From Candidatus Uhrbacteria bacterium (GTDB taxonomy: Bacteria; Patescibacteriota; Patescibacteriia; JACQRZ01): a DNA stretch of 64,000 nt. Positions 5,100 through 46,184 of this stretch are shown here, in pieces (position 1 is the stretch's first letter; every line of letters starts with the position of its first letter). The stretch spans positions 79,473 through 143,472 of the forward strand of contig JACQSC010000002.1 in NCBI GenBank assembly GCA_016206155.1, read 5' to 3'. Made by a program: the position numbers and the translations under genes. Under the pieces are notes generated by a model. That model made no database searches. It had not been told where the DNA came from and saw only the letters and a list, made by a program, of their open reading frames with translations.

Positions 5100-5774
5100 A
5101 TGGATGAACGAAAATTGCTTCTTGTCACGCACGTTGTTGACGCATATATTTCCACCGCGCATCCGGTTGGCTCGCAGGTTCTTGCTTCGCGCTATCGCTT
5201 GTCATGGAGTTCGGCGACAATTCGCAACGTACTCTCTCATCTTGAAGAAGAGGGGTATATGTTCCAACCCTATACCTCTGCGGGGCGCGTTCCGACGCAT
5301 TTGGGCTATCGTCTTTATCTCGAACACGTGCATGTAGCGCGCCTCAATCCTGCCCTGGAGCGATCACTGTCAAGCATGGCAGAACAGATGGCTTCCTTTG
5401 ATGAGCTCCGCGAGCTCTGTCGTATCCTCTCGCGCCTGACACAAGAGGTCGTCTTTACGGTCACACGTCTTGGATCGTTTACAACCGGGACACGATTCAT
5501 CACCCGGAAGCCCGAAGCGGAAGATCCGGCATTTATGCGAGATATTACCAATGCCATCGATGCGCTTGAGGATATATGCGCCGCGCTCGAGACGGAAATA
5601 GGCAGCATTACTCAATGTATCGGAGATGGGCAGACGTTTGGAGGTGCGTGCAGTGTTCTGCTCGTGCGCGTTCCATTTCAGCGCTCTACGGTTATGATTG
5701 GCATCCTTGGTCCGCTGCGCATGAATTATCATAAAAATATTGCCCTTCTTCAATCCCTCATCCCTAAACCCTAA
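5100..5774 (+). CDS. hrcA: heat-inducible transcription repressor HrcA (short form, 224 aa)
   Basis: N-terminal wHTH (LLLVTHVVDAYISTAHPVGSQVLASRY…LEEEGYMFQPYTSAGRVPT) is typical of HrcA. It is first gene of the hrcA-grpE-dnaK-dnaJ arrangement. It is shorter than the usual ~340 aa. Confidence 0.8.
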   Translation: MDERKLLLVTHVVDAYISTAHPVGSQVLASRYRLSWSSATIRNVLSHLEEEGYMFQPYTSAGRVPTHLGYRLYLEHVHVARLNPALERSLSSMAEQMASFDELRELCRILSRLTQEVVFTVTRLGSFTTGTRFITRKPEAEDPAFMRDITNAIDALEDICAALETEIGSITQCIGDGQTFGGACSVLLVRVPFQRSTVMIGILGPLRMNYHKNIALLQSLIPKP

Positions 5775-5796
5775 ACCCTAAACCCTAAACCCTAAA
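5762..5796. repeat. (CCCTAAA)x5 heptamer tandem repeat spanning the hrcA stop codon
   Basis: ccctaaa repeated five times. The hrcA TAA stop at 5772-5774 lies inside the tract. Confidence 0.9.
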
Positions 5797-5812
5797 CCCC
5801 AATCCCTCCTCT

Positions 5813-6379
5813 ATGAGCGACGAACAGACACAATCCACAGACGATAACGAAACACTGAAGCATGAGCTTGAAACATGCAAGAAGCAGTGTGAGGAATATC
5901 TCAACGGTTGGAAACGTGCAAAGGCCGACTACATTAACTATAAAAATGAAACTGAGAAGCGACGCGATGAGCTTGCGGGCATGGCTCTTATGACCTCAGC
6001 CGCGCAGTTTATCCCACCGCTCGATAATTTAAAAATAGCATTTATCCAGCTGCCGGATGAACTGAAGGAATCTGATTGGGTGAGGGGCATAGAGCAGATT
6101 CGCAAGCAGCTTGTTGAAATCATGAAAGGTTTGGGGGTTGAGGAGTTTGCAGAACCGGTTGTCGGCGCCGCATTTGATCCGGCAAAATTTTACGCCGTTG
6201 GCGAAGAGCGCCGCGATGATTTTGAGGACGGTGTGATTACACAGGAAGTAAGCCCGGGGTACACATTTCGTGGAAGCCTCATGGTTCCAGCGAAGGTTAT
6301 CGTTAATAAGAATCAAGAATCTAGAATTAAGAATCAAGAATCAGAGGGTGACACAGAGAAGAATGACCTTAATTCTTAA
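5813..6379 (+). CDS. grpE: nucleotide exchange factor GrpE
   Basis: Coiled-coil N-terminus followed by a GrpE C-terminal beta domain (…GYTFRGSLMVPAKVIV). Position between hrcA and dnaK. The C-terminal tail NKNQESRIKNQESEG is encoded by AATCAAG-like heptamers. Confidence 0.9.
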   Translation: MSDEQTQSTDDNETLKHELETCKKQCEEYLNGWKRAKADYINYKNETEKRRDELAGMALMTSAAQFIPPLDNLKIAFIQLPDELKESDWVRGIEQIRKQLVEIMKGLGVEEFAEPVVGAAFDPAKFYAVGEERRDDFEDGVITQEVSPGYTFRGSLMVPAKVIVNKNQESRIKNQESEGDTEKNDLNS

Positions 6380-6437
6380 TTCATTATTCATAATTCTTTA
6401 AATTTAAGAAGCGCTAACATATTAATCAAAATATACT

Positions 6438-10524: not shown

Positions 10525-13047
10525 ATGGAGGACATCACTCAATCATTTTCAGATTTGCTTGCAGAGAATCCTTTTTTTGGTTTGTTCCTTGTTCTGATTA
10601 TCATTGGTGCGCTTGGATGGGTCGGTATCCTCGCGCTTCGCTATGCGCTCCACAAGTGGTTTGAAATACCACTCTCTTTAAACAAGAAGGTTTTGCAGAT
10701 TCTCGTTCCGAAAGAGTCTGCAAAGAAGGAGGAAGAAGATAAGTCATCAAAAAAAGATTACAAAGAGCTGATAGCCGTCATGGAGAGCTTTTATTCGGGA
10801 CTGGGACACCTCAAGCCAAAGTTACGATTTTTTGCTTTTTTTATCGGCCGCGAGGATCATATTTCCCTTGAGATTGCCGCGATTGAAGGATTGGTAAAAT
10901 TTTTTATCGTTGTTCCCGCGCACATGCAGCAGTTTTTTGAGCAGCAGCTGCACGCCCAATATCCATCGGCGAAGGTGGAAGAGGTTGAGGATTATAATCT
11001 GTTTCGTCCGCGCGGAGTTATCATCGGCGCGCCGATTGTCGCAACCAAGGCGTCCATGTTTCGTATCCGCACGTACAAGACCATGGACTCCGATCCGCTC
11101 AACGCTCTGACCAACGCCATGAGCAAGGTGGAATCAACGCAGGGCGCGGCGATTCAGCTCGTGATCCGCACCGCGCGAAGAGGATGGGGGCGGCGCGGCG
11201 TTGAGATCGCGCGCAAAGTCCAAAAGGGAAAATCATTAAAAGCGGCCATGCAGGGACCGCTCGCTGGTTTCGTTGACGGGCTGGCGCACACATTGATCAA
11301 AGGTACGTCTGATGCGGTTTTCTCACCTGACAAAAAGTCGCCGCCCATGAAAGGAACGGAGGATCCCTATCCGCGACACTCACCGATGGAGCAGGAGCTT
11401 ATCAAATCGATCGAGGAAAAAGCATCAAAGGGCGGCTTTGAGACGAGTATGCGCGTAGTGACATCGGCAGATGATGAGCGCGTTGCCAAGATGCATTTGC
11501 ATAGTATTGCCAATGCGTTTTCCCAATATCTCGCGCCCGAGTCCGGTATTACACTGCGAAAGAAAAAGTATTTTTATTTCAAAGGATCGTTGATAAAAAG
11601 TTTTATCTATCGCAGGTTTGATCATCGGCGGAAATTTATTTTTTCAACCGAGGAACTTGCCAGCCTGTATCACTTTCCGTTGAGCACAACCGAAACGCCA
11701 AATATACAATGGCTGCACGCGCGCACAGCGCCTCCCCCCGTTGATATCCCACAAGAGGGAATTATTCTTGGTGAAAGCATCTATCGGGGCAAGCGCACCC
11801 TTATTCGCATGAAGCGGGAGGATCGCCGCCGTCACATGTACGTGGTCGGTACGACAGGTGTTGGCAAGACGACGATCATGGAAAACATGATTATTCAGGA
11901 TATTCAGAACGGCGAGGGGTGCGGATTCATCGATCCTCACGGCGAGGCCGTCAAACATATCTTGGAGAATATTCCACCGGAACGCGCCGACGATGTCGTG
12001 TTGTTTGATCCATCGGATACCGATCGGCCAGTTGGCCTCAATATGCTTCAGGCCGACACGCCAGCTGAGACTGATTTTGCCATTCAGGAGATGATTGCGA
12101 TTTTCTATAAATTGGTGACAGATCCCTCCATGATCGGGCCGATGTTTGAGCACTACATGAGGAACGCCATGCTGACCCTTATGTCCGATCCAGTCCATCC
12201 GGGAACAATCGTCGAGATTCCTCGCATTCTTACCGATCGCGACTACCAGACCTACAAATTGCAAACGGTGACCGATCCTATTGTGCGGGCGTTTTGGGAA
12301 AAGGAGCTTCCTCAGACCGCCGGACAGACAAAAGGGGAGATGTTGCCTTACCTTGTATCAAAAATTGGACGGTTTATCGAGAACGTCATGATGCGCAATA
12401 TTATTGGGCAGGAGCATTCCGGTTTTGATTTCCGCGAGGTGATGGATCGTAAAAAAATTCTTCTGGTCAATCTCTCAAAGGGACAAGTCGGAGAGATAAA
12501 CAGCAATCTCTTGGGGCTCGTGGTGGTCTCCAAGCTGCAGATGGCGGCGCTTGCGCGCGCCGATATGCCCTCAGAAAAGCGTCACGATTTTTTTCTCTAC
12601 ATTGATGAGTTTCAAAATTTTATCACCGATAGCATTGCAACGATTCTTTCAGAAGCCCGAAAATATCGGCTTAATCTTGTGCTCGGCCACCAGTATATTG
12701 GACAATTGGTGCCCAAACAGGGTGACACCAAGGTTCGCGATGCCGTGTTTGGCAACGTTGGGACCATTTGCGCATATCGTGTCGGTGTCGATGACGCGGA
12801 ATTGATGGCAAAACAGCTTGCGCCGGTGTTCAATGAGTATGACGTCATCAATACGGAGAAGTACACCGCCAACCTTCGCCTTCTTATCGACAATACAGCG
12901 GCGCGCCCTTTTAGTATGCGTACTTTTCCTCCATTGGAGGGAGATGTGAATATTGCCGAGGCAATTCGGCAGCTTGCGCGCCTTAAATACGGACGCGACC
13001 GCGCGTTGGTTGAGGCCGAGATCCTCGAGCGCTCTCAGCTTGGGTAG
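10525..13047 (+). CDS. TraD/TrwB/VirD4-family coupling-protein-like ATPase with a long N-terminal transmembrane extension
   Basis: N-terminal TM (FFGLFLVLIIIGALGWVGILAL). Walker A motif GTTGVGKTT and Walker B motif FFLYIDEFQNF, followed by HQYIGQL. The architecture matches T4SS coupling-protein and TraG-D_C ATPases. Confidence 0.75.
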   Translation: MEDITQSFSDLLAENPFFGLFLVLIIIGALGWVGILALRYALHKWFEIPLSLNKKVLQILVPKESAKKEEEDKSSKKDYKELIAVMESFYSGLGHLKPKLRFFAFFIGREDHISLEIAAIEGLVKFFIVVPAHMQQFFEQQLHAQYPSAKVEEVEDYNLFRPRGVIIGAPIVATKASMFRIRTYKTMDSDPLNALTNAMSKVESTQGAAIQLVIRTARRGWGRRGVEIARKVQKGKSLKAAMQGPLAGFVDGLAHTLIKGTSDAVFSPDKKSPPMKGTEDPYPRHSPMEQELIKSIEEKASKGGFETSMRVVTSADDERVAKMHLHSIANAFSQYLAPESGITLRKKKYFYFKGSLIKSFIYRRFDHRRKFIFSTEELASLYHFPLSTTETPNIQWLHARTAPPPVDIPQEGIILGESIYRGKRTLIRMKREDRRRHMYVVGTTGVGKTTIMENMIIQDIQNGEGCGFIDPHGEAVKHILENIPPERADDVVLFDPSDTDRPVGLNMLQADTPAETDFAIQEMIAIFYKLVTDPSMIGPMFEHYMRNAMLTLMSDPVHPGTIVEIPRILTDRDYQTYKLQTVTDPIVRAFWEKELPQTAGQTKGEMLPYLVSKIGRFIENVMMRNIIGQEHSGFDFREVMDRKKILLVNLSKGQVGEINSNLLGLVVVSKLQMAALARADMPSEKRHDFFLYIDEFQNFITDSIATILSEARKYRLNLVLGHQYIGQLVPKQGDTKVRDAVFGNVGTICAYRVGVDDAELMAKQLAPVFNEYDVINTEKYTANLRLLIDNTAARPFSMRTFPPLEGDVNIAEAIRQLARLKYGRDRALVEAEILERSQLG

Positions 13048-18907: not shown

Positions 18908-18949
18908 CGGGTGGGGGAACACCATTTCCAATTGGCGAAGGTCAATAAA

Positions 18950-20326
18950 ATGAAAATTTTAAAATTCGGCGGAACGTCGGTCGGGACACCCGAATCGATA
19001 CGAAAAGTTATTGAGATCGTCCGTGCTGCTGCGGCCGATGAATCGTGCGTTGTGGTGGTGTCTGCATTTACCAAGGTAACCGATAAATTGATTGATGTGT
19101 GTGAAGCCTCCGCGCTTGGAGGAGATTATCAGGCTTCGCTGCAGGAACTTGAGCGTCGCCATGTTGAAGCGGTTAGCGAGCTGATTTCGTTTGCCGATCA
19201 ATCATCGCTTGTCGCAGAGGTAAAGGCGTCATGTAATGAACTTGCTGATATTCTTCGCGGACTTTCGCTGCTTGGCGAACTCACACCGCGCGCGAGAGAT
19301 TTGGTTATGAGTTTTGGCGAGCGGCTTTCGGCGACGGTTATAGCGGCGGCACTCAAGGGAGGTGGTCTTCCCGCTACTCTACTCGATGCGCGAGAATGCA
19401 TCAAAACCGATTCGCAGTACGGGCACGCGCAGGTTCTCTTTGCTGAAACTGTGTCGCTCGTGCGTAGGTATTTCCATGAAAGGCGCTCCGTGACCGTTGT
19501 CACCGGATTTATTGCCTCTACCATTGATGGACACACGACAACACTCGGCCGTGGAGGCTCTGACTATACCGCATCAATCCTTGGCGCGGCGCTCGACGCA
19601 TCGGCTATTGAAATTTGGACCGATGTTGATGGTGTCATGACCGCAGACCCTCGTATCGTACCGCAGGCACGACGCATCAGAAAGACAACCTATGAAGAAA
19701 CAATGGAGCTCTCATATTTTGGGGCAAAGGTGATCTATTATCCAACGATCATACCGGCGCGCGAACATCATATCCCGCTGGTGATCAAGAACACGTTTAA
19801 TCCGGACGCTCTTGGAACGAACATCGGTGACGAACCAAGCAGTGATCATTCTCCAGTTACCGCAATTACATCGGTTGCCCCAATCGTGCTTCTCCAAATA
19901 AAAGGCGTGGGGTTGATTGGAACAAAGGGAATGGCGCGCCGCGTGTTTGGCGCGCTTGCAGACGCGACCATCAACGTCATCCTCATCTCTCAGGCATCAA
20001 GCGAATATTCCATCTGCATCGCAATCGCAGCACACGAAAAAGACCACGCGCTGGCAACGCTTGCGAGCGAATTTGAGTTGGAAATTATTCAGAAGCGCAT
20101 TGACCCCATTTGCGCGGAGAATGAATCCGCTATTATTGCGGTTGTCGGGGCTCGAATGCGGGAGACGCCTGGGACTGTCGGGCGCGTGTTCTCTGCGGTG
20201 GGGAGCAGAAAGATCAATGTACGGGCAATTGCTCAAGGGTCATCGGAGTTGAATATCTCGTTCGTTGTATCGGAAAGTGACAAGGAGGAAGCCATCCGTG
20301 CGATTCATGATGAGTTTTTTGTATGA
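18950..20326 (+). CDS. lysC: aspartate kinase
   Basis: MKILKFGGTSVG amino-acid-kinase N-terminus and two C-terminal ACT-like regions. First gene of the threonine operon. Start placed at the ATG at 18950. Confidence 0.9.
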   Translation: MKILKFGGTSVGTPESIRKVIEIVRAAAADESCVVVVSAFTKVTDKLIDVCEASALGGDYQASLQELERRHVEAVSELISFADQSSLVAEVKASCNELADILRGLSLLGELTPRARDLVMSFGERLSATVIAAALKGGGLPATLLDARECIKTDSQYGHAQVLFAETVSLVRRYFHERRSVTVVTGFIASTIDGHTTTLGRGGSDYTASILGAALDASAIEIWTDVDGVMTADPRIVPQARRIRKTTYEETMELSYFGAKVIYYPTIIPAREHHIPLVIKNTFNPDALGTNIGDEPSSDHSPVTAITSVAPIVLLQIKGVGLIGTKGMARRVFGALADATINVILISQASSEYSICIAIAAHEKDHALATLASEFELEIIQKRIDPICAENESAIIAVVGARMRETPGTVGRVFSAVGSRKINVRAIAQGSSELNISFVVSESDKEEAIRAIHDEFFV

Positions 20327-21381
20327 ATGTTTTTCTTGTTGGAACCGGACTCATCGGATCTACACTTCTCACACAGATTCGTGAGAATCAATCACGGTTG
20401 AAGGCGGAGGGAGTCGAGTTAAGCGTGTGCGGGATTGCAAACGCAGAGCGCATGCTTCTTGACGCAAACGGCATTGCGCTCGATCGGTGGCAGGAGCGTC
20501 TTGCGCAGGACGGCATCTCGCTTGATCTCGCCGCATATATCTCAGCAAGCGGATCGTGGAGGATGCCACGCAGTGTTTTTGTTGATTGCACCGCCAGTCA
20601 GGATGTTGCCGATGCATATTGCAGTATTGCGCGTACCGGAGCGGCGATTGTTGCGGCAAACAAAAAGGCGCAGTCCGGTTCGCTCGATGCGTACGAAACA
20701 TTATGGAAGACGCTTCATGAGACAAGAACATCATTTTTGTACGAGACCAATGTGGGCGCGGCGCTGCCGGTGATCAGCGCCCTCAAAGATCTGCTTGTGA
20801 CAGGTGATCGTGTTGAAAAAATTGAGGCGATTCTTTCGGGTACCTTGAGCTATATCTTCAACACATATTCGGATTCTCGCAGTCCATTTTCTGATATCGT
20901 CCGTGAGGCAAAAGAAAAAGGCTACACAGAGCCCGATCCGCGTGACGACCTTTCAGGATTGGATGTTGCACGAAAAGCCGTGATTCTGGCACGAGAGATT
21001 GGGCAGAAGATTTCAGTAGAGGACATCGCACGCGCTCCGCTCCTTTCCGACACGTGCATGAGCGCCGGATCGGTTGATGATTTTTTTTCAGCACTGGAAT
21101 CAATGAACGCGGAATGGGAAGAAAAGAAGCAATCGGCAAAAAGTCGCGGAAGCGTGTTGCGCTACATTGCAACAATTGATCAAAGCGGAGCGCGTATTTC
21201 ACTCGAGGAAGTAAATCAAACACACGCCTTTTATTCTCTGTCGGGAAGTGATAATATCGTTGCATTCACAACAGCTCGTTACTGTGATACTCCGCTTGTG
21301 ATTAAAGGTCCAGGCGCCGGCGCACAGGTGACTGCCGGGGGCGTTTTTGCGGATATTCTTAAAACAGGGTATAGGGTTTAG
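20323..21381 (+). CDS. hom: homoserine dehydrogenase
   Basis: NAD-binding N-terminus (VFLVGTGLIGS) and the HSDH catalytic signature (…EAKEKGYTEPDPRDDLSGLDVARKAVILAREIG). Overlaps the lysC stop. Confidence 0.88.
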   Translation: MNVFLVGTGLIGSTLLTQIRENQSRLKAEGVELSVCGIANAERMLLDANGIALDRWQERLAQDGISLDLAAYISASGSWRMPRSVFVDCTASQDVADAYCSIARTGAAIVAANKKAQSGSLDAYETLWKTLHETRTSFLYETNVGAALPVISALKDLLVTGDRVEKIEAILSGTLSYIFNTYSDSRSPFSDIVREAKEKGYTEPDPRDDLSGLDVARKAVILAREIGQKISVEDIARAPLLSDTCMSAGSVDDFFSALESMNAEWEEKKQSAKSRGSVLRYIATIDQSGARISLEEVNQTHAFYSLSGSDNIVAFTTARYCDTPLVIKGPGAGAQVTAGGVFADILKTGYRV

Positions 21382-21388
21382 GGTTTAG
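21367..21388. repeat. (TTTAGGG)~3 heptamer tract, reverse orientation of the CCCTAAA tracts, spanning the hom stop codon
   Basis: gggtatagggtttagggtttag. The hom TAG stop at 21379-21381 lies inside the tract. Confidence 0.85.
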
Positions 21389-22540: not shown

Positions 22541-22622
22541 GAAGAATTACGAATTACGAATTAAGCATAAAAAGCAACAGATTTAAGCTCCTTAATTCTT
22601 AATTCTTGATTCGTAATTCTTC
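22541..22622. repeat. imperfect inverted repeat built from GAATTAC/GAATTAA heptamers (hairpin between asd and thrB)
   Basis: gaagaattacgaattacgaattaag …35 nt… cttaattcttaattcttgattcgtaattcttc. The arms are reverse-complementary apart from one heptamer variant. Confidence 0.75.
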
Positions 22623-23582: not shown

Positions 23583-24928
23583 ACTATTACAGCACAAACA
23601 AAAAAGCGCCGAGCGTGTCATTGCGCGAGGCGGTATTGAACGGTCTTGCGCAGGACGGGGGATTGTATATGCCTGAGCGGATTTCACAGATGCCGTCAGA
23701 TTTTTTTGTTCGTCTTCCCTCGCTATCATTTCAAGAAATTGCATACGAGGTTGGCCGTGTGCTTTTTGCCGGAGATCTTCCCGACAGTACTCTGGATGAG
23801 ATATGCAGAGAAAGTTTTGATTTTCCTGTTCCGTTAAAGCGTGTCGATGCATCGACACACGCTCTTGAGCTATTCCATGGGCCGACACTGGCATTCAAGG
23901 ATTTTGCCGCACGATTTATGGCTCGGCTCATGGGCTATTACGTGCGTCATGATGATCGGGAGCTGACTATCCTTGTCGCAACATCCGGAGATACGGGAAG
24001 CGCGGCTGCGCACGGTTTTCTTAATGTTCCTGGCATTCGCGTCTTTATTCTCTATCCATCCGGCCGGGTCAGCGATCTTCAGGAGAAGCAGCTGACGACA
24101 ATGGGCGGGAACATCACCGCGCTTGAAGTTCAGGGGAGTTTTGATGATTGTCAGGCGCTGGCAAAGCAGGCATTTGTTGATCCGGATTTAAAAAAGAAAA
24201 TGCGCATGGGATCGGCAAATTCAATTAACATCGCGCGGCTTTTTCCGCAGACGTTTTATTACTGGTGGGCAGTTGAACAAATGGGGAAACGGGGTCAGGC
24301 ACAGATTTTGCATTCGCAAAAACTGAGCCAGACCCCAACTGAGCCAGACCCCATTATCGTCTCTGTCCCGAGTGGCAACGTTGGCAATCTCACGGCCGGG
24401 CTTATTGCAAAACAAATGGGTCTGCCAATTGGCCGCTTTATTGCCGCATGCAATGAAAATAACGTTATTCCGGAGTACCTTAAAACAGGGATCTTCACGC
24501 CGAAGCCTTCTCGTGCTACGATATCCAATGCCATGGATGTAGGCAATCCAAGCAATTTTGTGCGGATGCAGGAGCTCTATGGTCACTCTGCAGATGCGAT
24601 GAGGCATGATCTCTCGGCCCATTCCTTCACCGACGATCAGACACGAGCGGCGATGCGGGATGTGTATAACGATACGGGATATATTCTTGACCCTCATGGC
24701 GCCGTTGGATATTGCGCGCTCAAGGAATATCAGAAACAATATCCGGAAACGTATGGCATTATTCTTGAGACCGCTCATCCGGCAAAATTCAAAGACGTTG
24801 TAGAGGACACTATCGGCTCGCCGGTTGACATACCAAAGCGTCTGGCAGAATATATGATGCGAGAGAAGCAAGCAGTTTTACTACCCGCGCGATTTGGGGC
24901 ATTAAAAGAATTTTTGATTAGCTCATGA
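23579..24928 (+). CDS. thrC: threonine synthase (carries an in-frame palindromic-element insertion)
   Basis: PLP-binding FHGPTLAFKD lysine motif and SGNVGNLTAG. Overlaps the thrB stop. Positions 24291-24355 encode an extra peptide (…GQAQILHSQKLSQTPTEPDP…) from a repeat element. Confidence 0.92.
   Translation: MNYYSTNKKAPSVSLREAVLNGLAQDGGLYMPERISQMPSDFFVRLPSLSFQEIAYEVGRVLFAGDLPDSTLDEICRESFDFPVPLKRVDASTHALELFHGPTLAFKDFAARFMARLMGYYVRHDDRELTILVATSGDTGSAAAHGFLNVPGIRVFILYPSGRVSDLQEKQLTTMGGNITALEVQGSFDDCQALAKQAFVDPDLKKKMRMGSANSINIARLFPQTFYYWWAVEQMGKRGQAQILHSQKLSQTPTEPDPIIVSVPSGNVGNLTAGLIAKQMGLPIGRFIAACNENNVIPEYLKTGIFTPKPSRATISNAMDVGNPSNFVRMQELYGHSADAMRHDLSAHSFTDDQTRAAMRDVYNDTGYILDPHGAVGYCALKEYQKQYPETYGIILETAHPAKFKDVVEDTIGSPVDIPKRLAEYMMREKQAVLLPARFGALKEFLISS
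24291..24355. repeat. palindromic element copy inserted in-frame inside thrC
   Basis: ggggtcaggcacagattttgc-attc-gcaaaaactgagccagacccc forms a 21-bp stem with three A-A mismatches. The right arm is partially duplicated (aactgagccagacccc x2). Near-identical to the reverse complement of 13051..13099. Confidence 0.85.
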
Positions 24929-24959
24929 ACTCCCTCATGAACTCTCTCATGAACTATGA
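24924..24959. repeat. 12-mer tandem repeat (CATGAACTCCCT, CATGAACTCTCT, CATGAACTATGA) linking the thrC stop to the next start codon
   Basis: The thrC TGA (24926-28) lies in unit 1. The ATG of the downstream gene (24956) lies in unit 3. Confidence 0.85.
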
Positions 24960-25138
24960 CATCGAAAAAATGTATTACAGGCGTATCAGTGCGAAAATTA
25001 TCAAAAGTCGCAGGAGGCAAGAGCTATAGCATGACCATTCCGAGTGATATCGTTCGTGCATTTGGATGGAAAGAACACCAGAAGCTTGTTGTCTCCCGCG
25101 TCGGACGACATATTGTCATAAAAGATTGGAGGAAATAA
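24956..25138 (+). CDS. small AbrB/MazE/SpoVT-like DNA-binding protein (antitoxin-like fold)
   Basis: 60 aa. VRKLSKVAGGKSYSMTIPSDIVRAFGWKEHQKLVVSRVGRHIVIKD fits the swapped-hairpin AbrB/MazE pattern. A GGAGG ribosome-binding site for the next gene overlaps its 3' end. Confidence 0.5.
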   Translation: MTSKKCITGVSVRKLSKVAGGKSYSMTIPSDIVRAFGWKEHQKLVVSRVGRHIVIKDWRK

Positions 25139-25140
25139 GT

Positions 25141-25860
25141 ATGCCAAAAAAACAACCAGGACCAGAATCAGCAGGGGACGGACAGGAGTCATTTGAGCAA
25201 GCACCAATGGGCGGTGATATTAAAACCGGGAGGAAAACCGGTGAAACGAAGAATGAGAATCAATATTTTGCGCTCATTCGAGATATGCGCGCGAGGGCGG
25301 ACAGTGTTTCGCTGGACATACATGAGCACGCAGTAACGCGCAGCGTGAAGAGACCTATTAGAATGAAGGATAAGCGATATTACGTTGATGCGATCATTTC
25401 CGCCAGACCGACTATTGATCCAGGCGGAGGACATGATTATGATTCAGCAATTTATGTACATAGCTATGCAGTGCATCGTGAAGTAGTAGATGAGATGCGC
25501 TTCGTAGATCAGATGCGCGATGAAAAATATGTTGCGCGTAATAAGGTGAGTGAACCCATGATGGAATCAGCGAATGATATAGGAGGGTACGTTATACAGA
25601 TTAGCCTTCCCGATCCAGTGTCATTCTTTGTTAATTCTCGAGATCATAATGTAGTGAGAAGGTTGCATCGAGAAATTGTGCGAATGAGCGAGAAGCTTGC
25701 GACACTTGACGCAGAGCGGGTTGCAGATATGTTTTCGGATCGTCATGTAAATGATCTTGCGAGTGACGGAGATCGGCTCATAAGCGAACGTGAATATATG
25801 GTTCTTCCAGACCCGCCCTATGAGAGTCCGCACGAGAAGCGCTATCCTCTCACTGAATAA
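25141..25860 (+). CDS. hypothetical protein (one copy of an unknown ~90-aa module)
   Basis: ATG at 25141 preceded by GGAGGA. It contains YVDAIISARPTIDPGGGHDYDSAIYVHSYAVH…NDIGGYVI, which also appears twice in the next protein. Confidence 0.55.
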   Translation: MPKKQPGPESAGDGQESFEQAPMGGDIKTGRKTGETKNENQYFALIRDMRARADSVSLDIHEHAVTRSVKRPIRMKDKRYYVDAIISARPTIDPGGGHDYDSAIYVHSYAVHREVVDEMRFVDQMRDEKYVARNKVSEPMMESANDIGGYVIQISLPDPVSFFVNSRDHNVVRRLHREIVRMSEKLATLDAERVADMFSDRHVNDLASDGDRLISEREYMVLPDPPYESPHEKRYPLTE

Positions 25861-25869
25861 GAAGTCATT

Positions 25870-27087
25870 ATGAAGAATCACATGAAAGCTGAGTTCGGAC
25901 CGTTTGAACTGCCGCAGCCGCACGATAACGACCGCGATCACAATCCTGAACAGAGCGGCCAGCGCCCACAGCATCCCGAACGTGAGAAGATTGTTATCAC
26001 CGATCCACAACAGTATCAGCATGCACTTGAGAACGTTGCCAAAATCATCTCGGCGAAAGAGTATACAGGCCACCAGCACTCTTTTTTTATTGATATTCAG
26101 GGCGAAGATGATTCTGTAATACCGTCTCGGTATATTGATGCATTTGTAACAGCGCGTCGGGCATATCGTATTCCCGACTATAAAAAGTCAGGCGACTGGA
26201 TTCGAAAGCCAGCCTTTGTCATCCATACGTATGCGGTGAGCGATATGTTTGACGATCGCGGCAGAACGCCGCTTAGAACAGAAAACGATATCGCGGGATA
26301 TTATCTTACCGCAGGAACCGCAGGCAATACCTATGGAATGTTTGTCCGTACGCATAATCGTCAGCTCCTCAAAGGATTGCATGAAACACTTGTTAAGCTG
26401 TGTTCGAAAAAGTCAGAACCAAAAAATCCGCAAACTGCTATTCAAGAACTTTACGAACAATACAATAACACACAGCATAATGAAGCATCTTCTGTCACCG
26501 AATTCATATGGAAAGGCATCATTCCACGTACACCAATACCTGGCATGCCCCTTCTGAGTATCGTTCAGGAATTGCGCGCAAGCGATCGTCCGGAAGATGA
26601 CACACTATCAGAAGAGTCGATTGAACGAAGCAGTTACGATCGAGAGAGACGAAAGCGGATGCGTATCGCGGCGCTTCGCAACCATGACGAGCAGCAGGTT
26701 GAATTGCCGGATTATTGTCCGCGGGGCTATCTATCGCCACGTCGTAGGGGGGATCGCCGTGTTTATATAGATGAAATTATTTCTGGGCGGAGTGATGGTA
26801 TTTATCTTCATACGCGAGGAATTGACCTTGAGCGAAAACCACTCATGAAGCCGACGGATATTACAGCCTACAAAACGACGTTCGGCCTTGAACCATTTGC
26901 GTATGATCTTATCATTTATACCAAAGATCGGGCAGATGCCGTGAAAGTTCACGCAGAAATTATTGAACGCGCGCAGCATATTATTCATGATCCAGCATTT
27001 AGCCCACTGCATATTCTGCGGGCTCTTGCTGAGGAATATAATAGGGGGCGCGATATGCCATTTATTCGCGTACTTACTGCTGAATGA
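25870..27087 (+). CDS. hypothetical protein (two copies of the same unknown module)
   Basis: RYIDAFVTARRAY…AFVIHTYAVS…NDIAGYYL and RVYIDEIISGRSDGIY…TDITAYKT. There is an acidic/basic linker (ERRKRMRIAALRNHDEQQ). No nameable homology. Confidence 0.6.
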   Translation: MKNHMKAEFGPFELPQPHDNDRDHNPEQSGQRPQHPEREKIVITDPQQYQHALENVAKIISAKEYTGHQHSFFIDIQGEDDSVIPSRYIDAFVTARRAYRIPDYKKSGDWIRKPAFVIHTYAVSDMFDDRGRTPLRTENDIAGYYLTAGTAGNTYGMFVRTHNRQLLKGLHETLVKLCSKKSEPKNPQTAIQELYEQYNNTQHNEASSVTEFIWKGIIPRTPIPGMPLLSIVQELRASDRPEDDTLSEESIERSSYDRERRKRMRIAALRNHDEQQVELPDYCPRGYLSPRRRGDRRVYIDEIISGRSDGIYLHTRGIDLERKPLMKPTDITAYKTTFGLEPFAYDLIIYTKDRADAVKVHAEIIERAQHIIHDPAFSPLHILRALAEEYNRGRDMPFIRVLTAE

Positions 27088-27104: not shown

Positions 27105-28025
27105 ATGGACATCGTATCAATCATTCTTATTGTCGCGGGGTTGTGTTTGTTTGAGACAATCAGCAGCATTGATAATGCCATTATCAATGCGGAGGTACTC
27201 TCAACAATGAAGGAGCGAGCGCGGCGGTGGTTTCTGACGTGGGGCATTTTTTTTGCCGTGTTCCTTGTGCGCGGTTTGTTGCCGCTCGTGATTGTCTGGT
27301 TGACGGTGCCATCACTTGGTCTGTGGGGTGCGTTCACCGCGACGTTTTCAAGCGATCCGGCAGTCATTGCGGCGATCGAGCATTCGGCGCCGATGCTTCT
27401 TATCGGCGGCGGTGTTTTTTTGATACTTATTTTTCTCCACTGGCTCTTTATGGAGGAAAAAAATTATGCCTTTCCCGGAGAACGCTTCATTCATGAAAAC
27501 GGTGTGTGGTTCTTTGCGTCGGCCTCCGTTGTTCTTGCCAGCGTTGTCTGGTTTGCGCTTCAGACAGACCCCTTGATGGCCTTTGCGGCGGTGGTTGGGT
27601 CCACGGCTTTTTTTATTACCAACGGCTTTAAGCAAAACGCCGAGGCGGCCGAAAAAAATCTCATGAAGGCTCATCTTTCCGATATCAGCAAGATTATGTA
27701 TCTTGAGGCGCTTGACGCGACATTCTCGGTTGATGGCGTGTTGGGCGCATTTGCCTTTACTCTTTCCGTTCCGCTCATTCTTTTTGGCAATGGACTTGGC
27801 GCGATTGTCGTCCGACAGATCACGATTGGCAATATCCACAGGATAAAAAAATATGCCTACTTGAAAAACGGAGCGATGTACTCTATTCTTGTGCTCGGGT
27901 GCGTTATGCTTGCCGAAAGTTTTGGCGCCCATATCGAGCCGTGGATGGCGCCCGTACTCACGTTTTTGATCGTTGGATATTTCTTTTTTAAATCAACAAG
28001 GATACAATTAAAGCCATTGGAATAA
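27105..28025 (+). CDS. TerC/DUF475-like integral membrane protein
   Basis: ETISSIDNAIINAEVL is the hallmark SxDNA motif of TerC-family membrane proteins. About eight TM helices. Confidence 0.6.
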   Translation: MDIVSIILIVAGLCLFETISSIDNAIINAEVLSTMKERARRWFLTWGIFFAVFLVRGLLPLVIVWLTVPSLGLWGAFTATFSSDPAVIAAIEHSAPMLLIGGGVFLILIFLHWLFMEEKNYAFPGERFIHENGVWFFASASVVLASVVWFALQTDPLMAFAAVVGSTAFFITNGFKQNAEAAEKNLMKAHLSDISKIMYLEALDATFSVDGVLGAFAFTLSVPLILFGNGLGAIVVRQITIGNIHRIKKYAYLKNGAMYSILVLGCVMLAESFGAHIEPWMAPVLTFLIVGYFFFKSTRIQLKPLE

Positions 28026-30932: not shown

Positions 30933-31005
30933 CAAACGGCTTCTGGCGTATTATTGTAGGTATGGTATGCTATCAATGTATAAACCGGTTTATACATTGA
31001 CGAAA

Positions 31006-31030
31006 CCCTAAACCCTAAACCCTAAACCCT
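31006..31030. repeat. (CCCTAAA)x3+CCCT tract abutting the start codon of the YtxH-like gene
   Basis: ccctaaaccctaaaccctaaaccct immediately followed by ATG at 31031. Confidence 0.9.
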
Positions 31031-31381
31031 ATGAAAGGAACACTTAAAGGAGCGGCGCTTGGCGCGCTCGTAGCATCCGCCGCAGCGCTTCTCCTCGCTC
31101 CAAAGTCAGGAAGAAAAACACGCGCTGACTTAAAAAAATTGCTTGATACCGCATCGACAGATTTGCAAAAAAAAGCAAAAAAAATACAGAATCTCTCACA
31201 AGCGCAATATGAAGAGCTCTTTCTTCATTCACTTGCCCAAGCCGCGCGAAAAAAAGAAGAAATCGTTGATGTGCTTGGCGATGTTGCCGCAGTGCTGAAG
31301 AAGGGATGGAGCGATGTGCGCCAGGAGCTAAAAACCTCAAAGCCGGCAAAGACTACGGGAGGTGCAAAAAAGAAAAAGTAG
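31031..31381 (+). CDS. YtxH-like (DUF948) stress protein
   Basis: GAALGALVASAAALLLAPKSGRKTRADLKK matches the YtxH N-terminal motif. Lys-rich helical remainder. Confidence 0.7.
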   Translation: MKGTLKGAALGALVASAAALLLAPKSGRKTRADLKKLLDTASTDLQKKAKKIQNLSQAQYEELFLHSLAQAARKKEEIVDVLGDVAAVLKKGWSDVRQELKTSKPAKTTGGAKKKK

Positions 31382-31383
31382 GT

Positions 31384-31815
31384 ATGGCATTTTCACGCAC
31401 CGACGAAGGACAGTCCAGCGCCATCACCTGTGAGGGTCCTGCATCGCGGGATGTGTTTGTTGATGCGGCTCACGGTTTGTTTGATGTGATCGCTGATGGC
31501 AGCAAGATTCGCGGGGATGAGCGCCAGGAGATTGTTGTTCAGGCAGAGGATATGCAGCGCTTGTTCGCAGCATGGCTTGGCGAGCTTATTGAGCGTGTGG
31601 CGCAGACAGGGATGGTGTACAGCGATTTTGAGGTTTTTTCAATCCAAAAAGGCGGACCAAAGCAGTATGTGCTCACAGGCGCGGTCTATGGCGAGGTCGG
31701 AGATCCCAAGCGCCATACGATTCGCCCGAGTGTTACCCTTGATCAGAATCACGTCGCATTTTCACAGAGCGATACGCGTTCATCCGGCTCATTTAAGGTT
31801 CGCTGGAGCGATTGA
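31384..31815 (+). CDS. hypothetical protein, weak archease-like pattern
   Basis: ATG at 31384. DVFVDAAHGLFDVIADGSKI and LFAAWLGELI loosely resemble archease helices. The metal-binding HTAD motif is absent. Confidence 0.5.
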   Translation: MAFSRTDEGQSSAITCEGPASRDVFVDAAHGLFDVIADGSKIRGDERQEIVVQAEDMQRLFAAWLGELIERVAQTGMVYSDFEVFSIQKGGPKQYVLTGAVYGEVGDPKRHTIRPSVTLDQNHVAFSQSDTRSSGSFKVRWSD

Positions 31816-34034: not shown

Positions 34035-35132
34035 ATGCCAAAGCTGGTTGTCAGTCTTGTTACGTATAACAGTAAAAACACCCTTGCGCGCTGTTTGGAG
34101 AGCGTTGCCAATCAGACATTTCGCGATTTCGAACTCATATGTCGCGACAATCATTCATCTGACGGCAGTGCTGATGGTGTGCGGCGTGCGTACCCTTCCG
34201 CACACTGTATCCAATCGCCGACAAACGAAGGATTTTCTCGAGCGCACAATGCAACGATTCGCGATACGACGTCTCCGTATCTGTGTATTCTCAACGCGGA
34301 TCTTATTCTTGATCCGTCCTATTTTGAGGAATGTGTTTCTTTTCTTGATGCGCATCATGGGGCGGCAGCAGTTTCCGGGCTTCTGGTGAAAGTACATTCA
34401 TTGACCGAGCCGGTTCATTCTGATACCATAGATTCCTCGGGGATCGTTCTTTTTCGCACGGGCCGCGCCGCTAATGCAGACGCAGGTAAATCCATTGAGG
34501 CGTTTAAGAAAATAACACAACGCATCGGTGTTCCCGCAACTGCGGCCGTCTATCGTCGCGCAGCGCTTGAGGATATTTCGTTGAAGATTTGTACATGTCA
34601 GCGGATGAGGCACTCGCAGTCGGATGGAGTGCAAGGCGGCAGCGATGAGCGGAGTAAGGCGTATATGGAAATACGTCGTCGAGCACCGGAGCTGGCAACG
34701 CAGCAATCCGCCGACTGCGAGTGCCGTATCGAATACTTTGACGAGGATTTTTTCATGTACAAGGAAGATGTCGATGTGGCTTTGCGCTTGACCCTTCGCG
34801 GATGGCGCTCCTATGCAATTCCCACATCACGCGCGTACCATATGCGCAGCACCGATGAAAACATTTTAAAAAGACCCTCGCCATTTATTAATCGTCTGTC
34901 ATATCGAAACCACTGGTTTGTTTTATTAAAAGATCTCCCTCGTTCCTTCTGGCTCCGTAATGGATTCCGGATTCTCTTTTTTGAAAGCGCAAAGCTTTTG
35001 TATCTCCTCATGCGCGAACCGAGCACGCTTGCAGCGCTTTTCGATGTCCTGAAGCTACGAGAAAAGATGCTTCAAAAAAGAGCCTTCATAATGGAAAGGG
35101 CAAAAGTTAAAAGCATAAAGTTAAAAGCATAA
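34035..35132 (+). CDS. glycosyltransferase family 2
   Basis: VVSLVTYNSKNTLARCLESVANQTFRDFELICRDNHSSDGS is a classic GT2 N-terminal motif. The last codons are encoded by a 14-mer tandem repeat. Confidence 0.8.
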   Translation: MPKLVVSLVTYNSKNTLARCLESVANQTFRDFELICRDNHSSDGSADGVRRAYPSAHCIQSPTNEGFSRAHNATIRDTTSPYLCILNADLILDPSYFEECVSFLDAHHGAAAVSGLLVKVHSLTEPVHSDTIDSSGIVLFRTGRAANADAGKSIEAFKKITQRIGVPATAAVYRRAALEDISLKICTCQRMRHSQSDGVQGGSDERSKAYMEIRRRAPELATQQSADCECRIEYFDEDFFMYKEDVDVALRLTLRGWRSYAIPTSRAYHMRSTDENILKRPSPFINRLSYRNHWFVLLKDLPRSFWLRNGFRILFFESAKLLYLLMREPSTLAALFDVLKLREKMLQKRAFIMERAKVKSIKLKA

Positions 35133-35140
35133 AGTTAAAA
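35099..35140. repeat. 14-mer tandem repeat (AAAGTTAAAAGCAT x~3) spanning the GT2 stop codon
   Basis: aaagttaaaagcat aaagttaaaagcat aaagttaaaag. It encodes …KVKSIKLKA*. Confidence 0.85.
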
Positions 35141-35145
35141 GTTCA

Positions 35146-35964
35146 ATGCCTGACATCTCCCTGATTATTTTGAATTTCAATAATGCTGGCTTGACGCGCG
35201 AGTGCGTTAAGAATTTTAAAAATCACAGCACCGCTGCGACGCTTGAAATAATCGTGGTTGATAATAGTCGCGACACCGCGCTTGCGGAGACGCTTCGCAT
35301 GCGGTATCCCGATGTCGTGTATATTCCAATGAAGGCTAATGTTGGTTTTGCGCGAGGGAACAATGCCGGCATTGCGCGCGCGACAGGGCGGTACATAGCG
35401 ATTGTTAACTACGATATCACCCCTCTGCCCGGAGCGTTGGATGGGTTCATGCGATATATGGACGAGCGCCCCGATGTCGGTATTGCGGCGCCGAAGCTCT
35501 ACAACCCGGACGGATCAGTTCAACAATCATATTACCGTTTTCATACCCTCCTCACGCCATTCTATCGCCGTCTTTTTGTCGGGCGTTTTCAATTCGCGCA
35601 ACGAAATCTTGATTCCTTCCTGATGCGCGATGCAGACATGAGCAAGCCGCAAGATGTGGACTGGGTGCTTGGCGCTTTTTTGTTTGTGCGCAGGGAAGCG
35701 ATTGAACACGTTGGAGCATTCGATGAACGTTTTTTTCTGTATTTTGAAGATACGGATTGGTGTCGGCGTTTTCATATCTCCGGCTGGCGTGTGCGCTACC
35801 TTCCGCATATTGGCCTTCTTCACTTGCATCTCCGCGATTCCGCGCATACAATGGGAATACGGGCTCTTCTTCATAAAACAACCCGAACCCACATTATAAG
35901 CGCGTGGAGATATTTTTTGAAACAGTGGCGCGGGGGATATAAGGTAAATAGGGAGGCATCATGA
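35146..35964 (+). CDS. glycosyltransferase family 2
   Basis: ISLIILNFNNAGLTRECVKN…VVDNSRD and a DxD-like region. Confidence 0.8.
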   Translation: MPDISLIILNFNNAGLTRECVKNFKNHSTAATLEIIVVDNSRDTALAETLRMRYPDVVYIPMKANVGFARGNNAGIARATGRYIAIVNYDITPLPGALDGFMRYMDERPDVGIAAPKLYNPDGSVQQSYYRFHTLLTPFYRRLFVGRFQFAQRNLDSFLMRDADMSKPQDVDWVLGAFLFVRREAIEHVGAFDERFFLYFEDTDWCRRFHISGWRVRYLPHIGLLHLHLRDSAHTMGIRALLHKTTRTHIISAWRYFLKQWRGGYKVNREAS

Positions 35965-45627: not shown

Positions 45628-46173
45628 ATGGCACGATCAAAACAAAGCAAACAGGATATACTTGAGAAGCTAGCGGATGCTCTAGGAAGGAGCGTTTCCG
45701 TAGTATTCGCAAGCGTAAAGGGCCTCAAGGTGTATGAGTTGGAGGAGCTTCGAAAAACGCTTCGAACCGAGGGTAACGAGTGTTTTGTCGCAAAAAAAAC
45801 ACTTCTCTCCCGCGCATTTTCCACCATGGAAACTAAGTTTGACTTCAGAGGTATGGATGGAGAGGTTGCAGCGGTTTTCGGATATACTGATCAAGTTGCG
45901 CCAGCGCGTGTACTGAGTGCGTTTGGCAAGACCCACGAGAAACTGACTATTCTTGCCGGTTTCATCAAGGATGAGGCAAGTGGCGTACAGTCATTGACAT
46001 CATCAGCCATTGCAGCGCTTGCGCTTTTGCCCTCCCGTGATGAACTGCGCGCCCGGGTTGTTGGATCACTGGCGGCACCGTTGCGTAATTGTGTTGGTGT
46101 TCTCCAGGGACCGCTTCGCGCATTCGCTCAAGTACTTAATGCATACGCACAAACCCTAAACCCTAAACCCTAA
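45628..46173 (+). CDS. rplJ: 50S ribosomal protein L10
   Basis: [39 protein letters not shown]… matches the L10 pattern and is followed by rplL. The ~320-bp upstream spacer likely contains the L10 leader. Confidence 0.9.
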
Positions 46174-46178
46174 ACCCT
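46154..46178. repeat. (CCCTAAA)x3+CCCT tract spanning the rplJ stop in the rplJ-rplL spacer
   Basis: ccctaaaccctaaaccctaaaccct. The rplJ TAA at 46171-73 lies inside the tract, and rplL starts 7 nt after it. Confidence 0.9.
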
Positions 46179-46184
46179 ATTTGT

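Follow-up and report, generated by a model that had tools for sequence, protein, structure and literature searches.

An adjacent pair of fast-evolving paralogues from an orphan protein family at a fixed genomic position in Candidatus Uhrbacteria

This work concerns a cluster of three genes, denoted here as g1, g2 and g3, in a 64,000-nucleotide stretch (the window) of contig JACQSC010000002.1, which belongs to Candidatus Uhrbacteria, a lineage of the Candidate Phyla Radiation. The second and third genes encode paralogous proteins in which a common module occurs once (g2) or twice (g3), and their family occupies the same chromosomal slot in nearly all related loci, has diverged much faster than its neighbours and fits no known family, fold neighbourhood or system among those searched. 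The first gene encodes an AbrB-type protein that accompanies the pair in only some of these loci. The interpretation that we favour, to which we would give a probability of roughly 0.35, is that g2 and g3 are soluble binding or scaffold proteins that act as a pair, docked through their N-terminal motifs, and that the AbrB-type protein is a local regulator added late.

The three genes

The cluster had been recognised in a preliminary description of this DNA as three tightly packed genes between the threonine operon and a TerC-like gene, and the open reading frames (ORFs) were indeed found there (Table 1); the gaps between them, given in that description as 3 and 10 bp, were measured as 2 nt (g1-g2) and 9 nt (g2-g3). 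All three are real genes, because each of them is conserved on other contigs and because g3 yields a confident structure model. The g2 and g3 products are identical in sequence to the NCBI proteins HY623_01130 and HY623_01135. The start of g2 can be placed at 25141 on account of the GGAGG ribosome-binding site, correctly noticed in the preliminary description within the 3' end of g1, and of the MPKK N-termini that are common to the g2 homologues.

Table 1. Coordinates of the cluster and of its features, numbered from the first letter of the window
Feature	Position	Strand	Description and basis
Tandem array, 2.8 copies of the 12-nt unit CTCATGAACTCC	24922-24955	+	TRF score 61, 95% matches; repeat family D2
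g1	24956-25138	+	60 aa; ORF call
Ribosome-binding site of g2, GGAGG	25128-25132	+	Within the 3' end of g1, 8 nt 5' of the ATG at 25141; read from the sequence
g2	25141-25860	+	239 aa, first-position paralogue; ORF call
FEQAPMGGD, g2 residues 18-26	25192-25218	+	Conserved peptide motif in a segment modelled as disordered
g3	25870-27087	+	405 aa, second-position paralogue; ORF call
EFGPFELPQP, g3 residues 8-17	25891-25920	+	Conserved N-terminal peptide motif
g3 N-module, residues 41-217	25990-26520	+	Helix, seven antiparallel strands, two helices, edge strand; BLASTP to the g2 module, E 2e-5
g3 C-module, residues 250-402	26617-27075	+	Degenerate second copy of the module; AF2/DSSP, hhalign

g2 and g3 are paralogues built from one module

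The comparison of g2 with g3 by BLASTP produced two alignments, located at residues 88-180 (E 2e-5) and 285-371 (E 3e-3) of g3, and a profile search likewise matched two stretches of this protein. Once relatives had been gathered, ten copies of the module gave a coherent alignment. When profiles of the N- and C-modules derived from the family alignments were compared by hhalign, they matched with a probability of 99.2% (E 3.7e-19) over 136 columns, a similarity well outside what chance would produce. As judged from these sequence comparisons, g2 and g3 are paralogues carrying one and two copies of the same module. The preliminary description had proposed this same recurrence, and the motifs that it quoted were all recovered: RYYVDAIISAR, AIYVHSYAV and NDIGGY in one copy, RYIDAFVTAR, AFVIHTYAV and NDIAGY in another, and VYIDEIISGR, GIYLHTRGI and TDITAY in the remaining one. 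Its estimate of the module length, about 90 aa, had to be enlarged, since hhalign and the g3 model delimit a unit of about 140-150 aa, made of a helix, an antiparallel sheet and two helices, of which the ~90-aa pattern is the conserved core.

The AlphaFold2 (AF2) model of g3, computed from an alignment of 19 sequences, reached a mean predicted local distance difference test score (pLDDT) of 79.3, with values of 85-97 within both modules, each of which contains five to seven antiparallel strands. The predicted template-modelling score of this model was 0.50, and therefore the orientation of the two modules relative to each other is not fixed by it. According to DSSP, the N-module comprises the elements E41-43, H46-61, E72-80 ... 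E154-160, H164-179, H187-202 and E211-217, and the C-module the elements H253-268, E285-288, E298-307, E312-318, E333-338, E345-350, H354-371, H379-392 and E398-402. Residues 1-38 (pLDDT below 50) and the acidic linker between the modules (residues 224-247) are modelled as disordered. In turn, g2 consists of a disordered N-terminus, one module (approximately residues 39-205) and the proline-rich tail LPDPPYESPHEK; its model, computed from five sequences, has a pLDDT of 60, with a core of one helix, five strands and two helices, and falls below 50 in residues 1-40. The family proteins are hydrophilic, with a net charge that is inconsistent between members, and across the 19 aligned sequences only two tyrosines are invariant besides Met1.

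A family restricted in range, fixed in position and rapidly diverging

An exhaustive HMMER search of 1.84e9 representative proteins with the module profile recovered 18 proteins at E values up to 1e-3; word-indexed protein searches found at most five family proteins and missed most of the family. The matches are mostly proteins of 389-426 aa with two modules, P0008 (655 aa) has three, and the nearest relatives of g2 have a single one. The homologues of g2 (P0003-P0007) show 41-48% identity, and the g3 orthologue in locus L002 39%. All named members come from Candidatus Uhrbacteria, the family having been found in only one branch of this lineage; pattern scans detected no further relatives in the JGI metagenome contigs and none in the IMG/VR viral contigs. 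One of the related contigs, L004 (CAYJLM010000049.1), was deposited as "uncultured Gammaproteobacteria"; it displays the Uhrbacteria gene order, with TerC and PepA proteins 79% and 64% identical to those of the window, and was probably mis-binned.

In the window the cluster is flanked by thrC, which ends at 24928, and by a TerC/DUF475 gene starting at 27105. On its 5' side are found the genes for aspartokinase, homoserine dehydrogenase, aspartate-semialdehyde dehydrogenase, homoserine kinase and threonine synthase, and on its 3' side those for TerC/DUF475, an M17 leucyl aminopeptidase (PepA), a small zinc-ribbon protein, a thioredoxin-reductase-like flavoprotein, YtxH and archease. The family occupies the same slot upstream of terC-pepA in 14 of the 15 related loci (the window, L001-L006 and L008-L014), where the thr operon or a SIMPL gene recurs upstream, and terC, pepA, trxB, ytxH, archease and mscS recur downstream. 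The synteny in relatives that the preliminary description had wished to see examined was confirmed; the AbrB-type gene is present in only five of these loci. Of the 13 loci in which this could be assessed, 10 have two family genes side by side. The proteins encoded on the same contigs show 24-44% identity to g2 and 23-38% to g3, as opposed to 78-89% for TerC and 61-76% for PepA; ThrC of the window and of L005 are about 66% identical over their full length. The family has therefore been passed on vertically at a fixed site, with a divergence much faster than that of the surrounding genes.

The arrangement of the window is also that of L002, L003, L008 and L014. In L009 and L010 the order is a 63-aa protein with two transmembrane segments, SIMPL, a first paralogue of 411 aa, a second one of 416 aa, TerC, PepA, a zinc ribbon, a TrxB-like protein, YtxH, archease, MscS and glycosyltransferases; L011 and L012 follow this order, the former with an additional VWA protein and the latter with an insertion-sequence element upstream. 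L013 presents SIMPL, a 200-aa variant, the second-position paralogue and PepA, and L006 a partial module protein followed by the second-position paralogue, TerC and PepA. In L005 the thr operon and SIMPL precede a single two-module protein and TerC. An unrelated protein of 347-487 aa with several helix-turn-helix (HTH) or winged-helix matches replaces the second paralogue in L001 (1114-2157) and L004 (1792-3255), where it is encoded between the first one and terC. These two multi-HTH proteins share an N-terminal domain (40% identity over 250 aa), their matches being to GerE, sigma-70 region 4 or winged-helix domains, and no copy of the gene was found in the window. The most distant member of the family, P0021 (E 3.5e-5), is encoded elsewhere, in L015, between an epimerase and a YgjP-like gene.

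Conserved motifs in the disordered N-termini

Each class of paralogue carries its own short motif at a constant distance from the N-terminus, within a segment of low pLDDT. Fifteen of 27 family sequences have the first-position motif, F[EK]Q.PMGG, at residues 17-20, and seven have the second-position motif, [FY][GTC]PF.[QLR]P.P, at residues 8-14. Both have the common core F-E/D-Q-P/A-x-P, as can be seen by comparing QFEQPPMGG (P0009) with GPFEQPPPS (P0013). Behind the first module comes a further proline-rich motif, which reads PPYESPHE in the first-position class and WKGxIP...IP in the second-position class. Short motifs that stay constant while the folded parts drift are what would be expected of docking peptides, and these segments may serve as such.

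The first-position motif is kept even in the variants of 200-221 aa found in L008 (246-848), L013 (7415-8017) and L014 (887-1552), which have a divergent body. This body is not recognisable as the usual N-module, and the variants were not recovered by the profile search. FEQxPMGG was also considered as a double-glycine leader, a possibility that was rejected, as the hydrophobic positions of the consensus are unmatched.

Searches for known families, folds and systems

Neither g2 nor g3 matched any profile of Pfam, NCBIfam, PHROGs or PADLOC, in keeping with the statement in the preliminary description that the module could not be matched to a family, and the comparison of all 19 family members with Pfam did not reveal a family common to them. 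The family sequence profiles A3 and A7 retrieved nothing from the PDB below an E value of 0.4. A match to an enzyme family was sought by sequence and by fold, and none was found. Regarding structure, the module has no close neighbour in the PDB or in the viral structure library, Foldseek returning nothing from the viral models at E values up to 1e-3; the best neighbours were the MAM33/p32 (gC1qBP) fold and PsiB. A p32-like acidic binder was rejected on the basis of the isoelectric point.

The three proteins of the window had no match in PADLOC-DB v2 at E values up to 1. The sole PADLOC signal across the family was to the candidate system PDC-S01, in three near-identical relatives of g2 (P0003, P0004 and P0007) and in none of the other 16 of the 19 members. 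A 40-residue stretch of the module (strand, strand, helix) aligns there to approximately positions 180-222 of three profiles; however, the scores are only 11-16 bits (E from 1.3e-3 at best to 3.5e-2) and about 10% of the profile is covered. Given this marginal score and its confinement to three close relatives, the relationship was taken as a probable chance match.

The AbrB-type protein and the array at its start codon

The assignment of the 60-aa g1 product as an AbrB/MazE-like protein was borne out by its match to the Pfam family PF04014 (MazE_antitoxin, SpoVT-AbrB), with 28.1 bits for a cut-off of 24.7, over residues 20-56. The narrower NCBIfam model for AbrB, TIGR01439, gave 19.6, under its cut-off of 28.3, and a PDB sequence search with g1 alone gave nothing below an E value of 0.4. 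By its sequence, g1 is a stand-alone SpoVT/AbrB domain protein, predicted to be of the MazE-type swapped-hairpin class, and an ordinary member of this family: it matches above the curated cut-off over nearly its whole length, and it is small and encoded first in a tightly coupled gene string, as is the case for many regulators of this type. It is set apart by three features: a C-terminal extension for toxin binding or sensing is lacking, the genes downstream match no known toxin, and its gene is an addition of a sub-clade rather than a constant partner of g2 and g3. At the N-terminus the protein is extended by about 12 poorly conserved residues, and its domain ends at residue 56, with the orthologues stopping at the same place.

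The AbrB-type gene is found in the window, L001, L003, L008 and L014, the orthologues being 57-63% identical to g1, and only where thrC lies directly upstream or the upstream sequence is missing. The family occurs without it in L004, L005 and L009-L013; at the AbrB-less loci the SIMPL gene is found upstream instead. The copy in L014 (713-883, 56 aa, about 60% identical to g1) had been overlooked by the gene finder of the source, and small genes of this type may consequently be under-counted in context tables.

The 12-nt array overlaps the final codons of thrC, in which it begins, and runs up to the start codon of g1; it is unique in the window, and no two-unit match was obtained in 100 shuffles. 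In all five loci with the AbrB-type gene, the stretch immediately before its ATG consists of a 12-nt unit repeated three or four times, and a Shine-Dalgarno sequence was found in none of the five. Outside the window the period is the same and the sequence differs, the unit being TTCATGAATNCN in L003 and CTCAGTAG plus 4 nt in L001, L008 and L014. Two dialects of the array sequence track substitutions in the protein (RKLSKV versus RKLTK[IT], and IVR[AK] versus IVRQ), a correspondence that fits a co-evolving operator, in so far as five related sequences can tell. The array is a candidate operator or, alternatively, a candidate leader lacking a Shine-Dalgarno sequence.

Proposed role of the pair and alternative explanations

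The locus holds two adjacent paralogues of an orphan Uhrbacteria family, which are inherited vertically and evolve fast. Each has a predicted disordered N-terminus bearing its motif (FEQxPMGG for the first gene, (F/Y)GPFxQPxP for the second) ahead of one to three modules. In the model that we propose, g2 and g3 would be soluble, cytoplasmic binding or scaffold proteins without enzymatic function that act jointly, probably by forming a hetero-oligomer of like modules, and their N-terminal motifs would tether them to a conserved cellular partner. The AbrB-type protein would have been acquired only in the sub-clade in which the locus directly follows thrC; it would most likely be a local transcriptional regulator, and it may bind the 12-nt array that abuts its own start codon.

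Several observations weigh against this model. Binding, complex formation and the existence of the partner are all steps that we infer. L005, L001 and L004 have a single family gene, which in the latter two is followed by the multi-HTH gene, and therefore a strict two-protein complex cannot be universal. Nearly every gene of the window is on the + strand and tightly packed, so that close spacing alone is weak evidence for an operon. Short tandem arrays abut the start codons of several other genes of this genome, and the 12-nt array may belong with them, as a type of leader widespread in the clade, and not be an AbrB operator. Finally, the N-module residues D90, R96, H119 and H171 (numbered as in g3) recur in 16-17 of the 19 sequences, so that a catalytic or metal site is conceivable. 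This last point is the basis of the main competing explanation, which we consider unlikely: the N-module would be a small enzyme or a metal-binding domain using these residues (the Asp of YIDA, the Arg of SAR and the His of YVHTY and LHxEI), and the C-module, in which the four positions are degenerate, an inactive supporting duplicate, as is typical of duplicated domains with an active and a pseudo-active copy. However, none of the four residues is invariant, several of them being replaced in P0018, P0020 and P0021, the family searches described above recovered no enzyme, and the divergence is unusually fast for an enzyme encoded in a housekeeping block. It would be similarly unlikely that g2 and g3 are DNA- or RNA-binding proteins of a nucleoid-associated or regulatory kind, a role that would explain both their association with an AbrB-type protein and the presence of a multi-HTH protein in the place of g3. 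A separate reading, which is also unlikely, is that g2 and g3 represent a previously unseen fold family, whose N-terminal peptide directs the pair to a machine such as an export route or a host-contact structure.

The preliminary description had compared the cluster with toxin or defence modules, an analogy that the present data do not support and that we regard as improbable, in which the AbrB-type protein would be the antitoxin or regulator and g2 and g3 the effectors or immunity proteins. The resemblance to a type II toxin-antitoxin system with a MazE/VapB/AbrB-fold antitoxin lies in a small upstream gene of the DNA-binding type, with its stop and the next start 2 nt apart, and in repeats that might be an operator, and fast evolution is the one feature compatible with a conflict system. 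However, no recognisable toxin (MazF, PIN, Doc, HipA and others) was detected by Pfam, NCBIfam, PHROG or PADLOC profiles, g1 lacks the C-terminal extension that would wrap a toxin, and the AbrB-type gene is absent from most loci. As for the defence-island-like surroundings that the preliminary description wanted checked, 14 of the 15 related loci place the pair instead among conserved housekeeping genes, outside any island or mobile context. Contrary to known anti-phage systems, the locus lies outside variable islands, with no tRNA, integrase, Rfam element or sharp break in GC content or composition, the window proteins match no defence profile, the PDC-S01 signal being confined to three other members, and nothing related was found in viral contigs or viral structures. 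In a further proposal, which we hold to be highly improbable, the conserved N-terminal peptide would serve as a signal for export or targeting, and the changing bodies would be fast-evolving effectors by which an episymbiotic cell acts on its host or neighbours. The constancy of the motif in front of changing bodies, the 200-221-aa variants included, mirrors the secretion-signal domains and cargo of polymorphic effectors, the divergence is rapid, and some neighbours are envelope-associated (SIMPL, VWA, the 63-aa protein with two transmembrane segments and TerC). However, the proteins have no hydrophobic signal peptide, neither a secretion motif nor a secretion system of a known kind lies next to them, the motif departs from the double-glycine leader consensus, and association with neighbours means little where nearly all genes point the same way and are closely packed.

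Families of this orphan, lineage-specific kind are frequent in these organisms. What is new here is only that g2 and g3 cannot be placed in a known family or system, and not a mechanism. Should a definite role emerge for the family, the Candidate Phyla Radiation bacteria would have in it an invention of their own clade, the N-terminal peptides could be used as bait for the partner, and a small view would be opened on the large unannotated fraction of these genomes; if the reading as a new fold family directed to an export route or a host-contact structure were true, the pair would be a lineage-specific interaction system of episymbiotic ultra-small bacteria. A confident model without structural neighbours, an internal duplication, docking-like motifs and a fixed, fast-evolving locus make the pair a reasonable small target, if not a surprise.

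Other repeats and neighbouring genes

Telomere-like heptamer arrays (CCCTAAA / AAACCCT / AGGGTTT, three to seven copies) were observed in intergenic spacers of the window at 5762-5807, 21366-21388, 31003-31031 and 46151-46179, often ending at a start codon or a few bases 5' of it. For instance, (AAACCCT)x4 at 31003-31031 precedes ytxH and reaches its ATG at 31031, and (CCCTAAA)x6.6 occupies 5762-5807; at the orthologous ytxH start of L009, at about 10730-10790, (CCCTAAT)x8 is found. These arrays may constitute a clade-wide, G-poor repeat leader that replaces the Shine-Dalgarno sequence. Paired heptamer arrays in opposite orientation lie between genes at 22544-22621 and 6308-6398, namely (GAATTAC)n ... 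(CTTAATT / GTAATTC)n and (AAGAATC)n ... (CTTAATT)n, and could fold into long hairpins acting as terminators or regulatory stems. At 35103-35141, 2.8 copies of the 14-nt unit AAAGTTAAAAGCAT end 5 nt 5' of the ATG at 35146.

A protein of 63-64 aa (MPLRIYTS...GFRHSGK) with two predicted hydrophobic helices is encoded in L005 (1017-1211), L009 (3170-3361), L011 (603-794) and L013 (6334-6525), directly 5' of SIMPL in the last three, which are loci without the AbrB-type gene, and further upstream, before the thr operon, in L005; the one copy scanned against Pfam, that of L009, gave no match. Aspartokinase and homoserine dehydrogenase are encoded in the window (18911-21381) by separate genes whose stop and start overlap in GTGA at 20323-20326, unlike in L005 (1287-3728), where they are fused into one protein of 813 aa. 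Lastly, ytxH (31031-31381) and the longest archease ORF (31306-31815) overlap by 76 nt; the Pfam match of archease begins at residue 39, and its true start is therefore probably at a downstream ATG.

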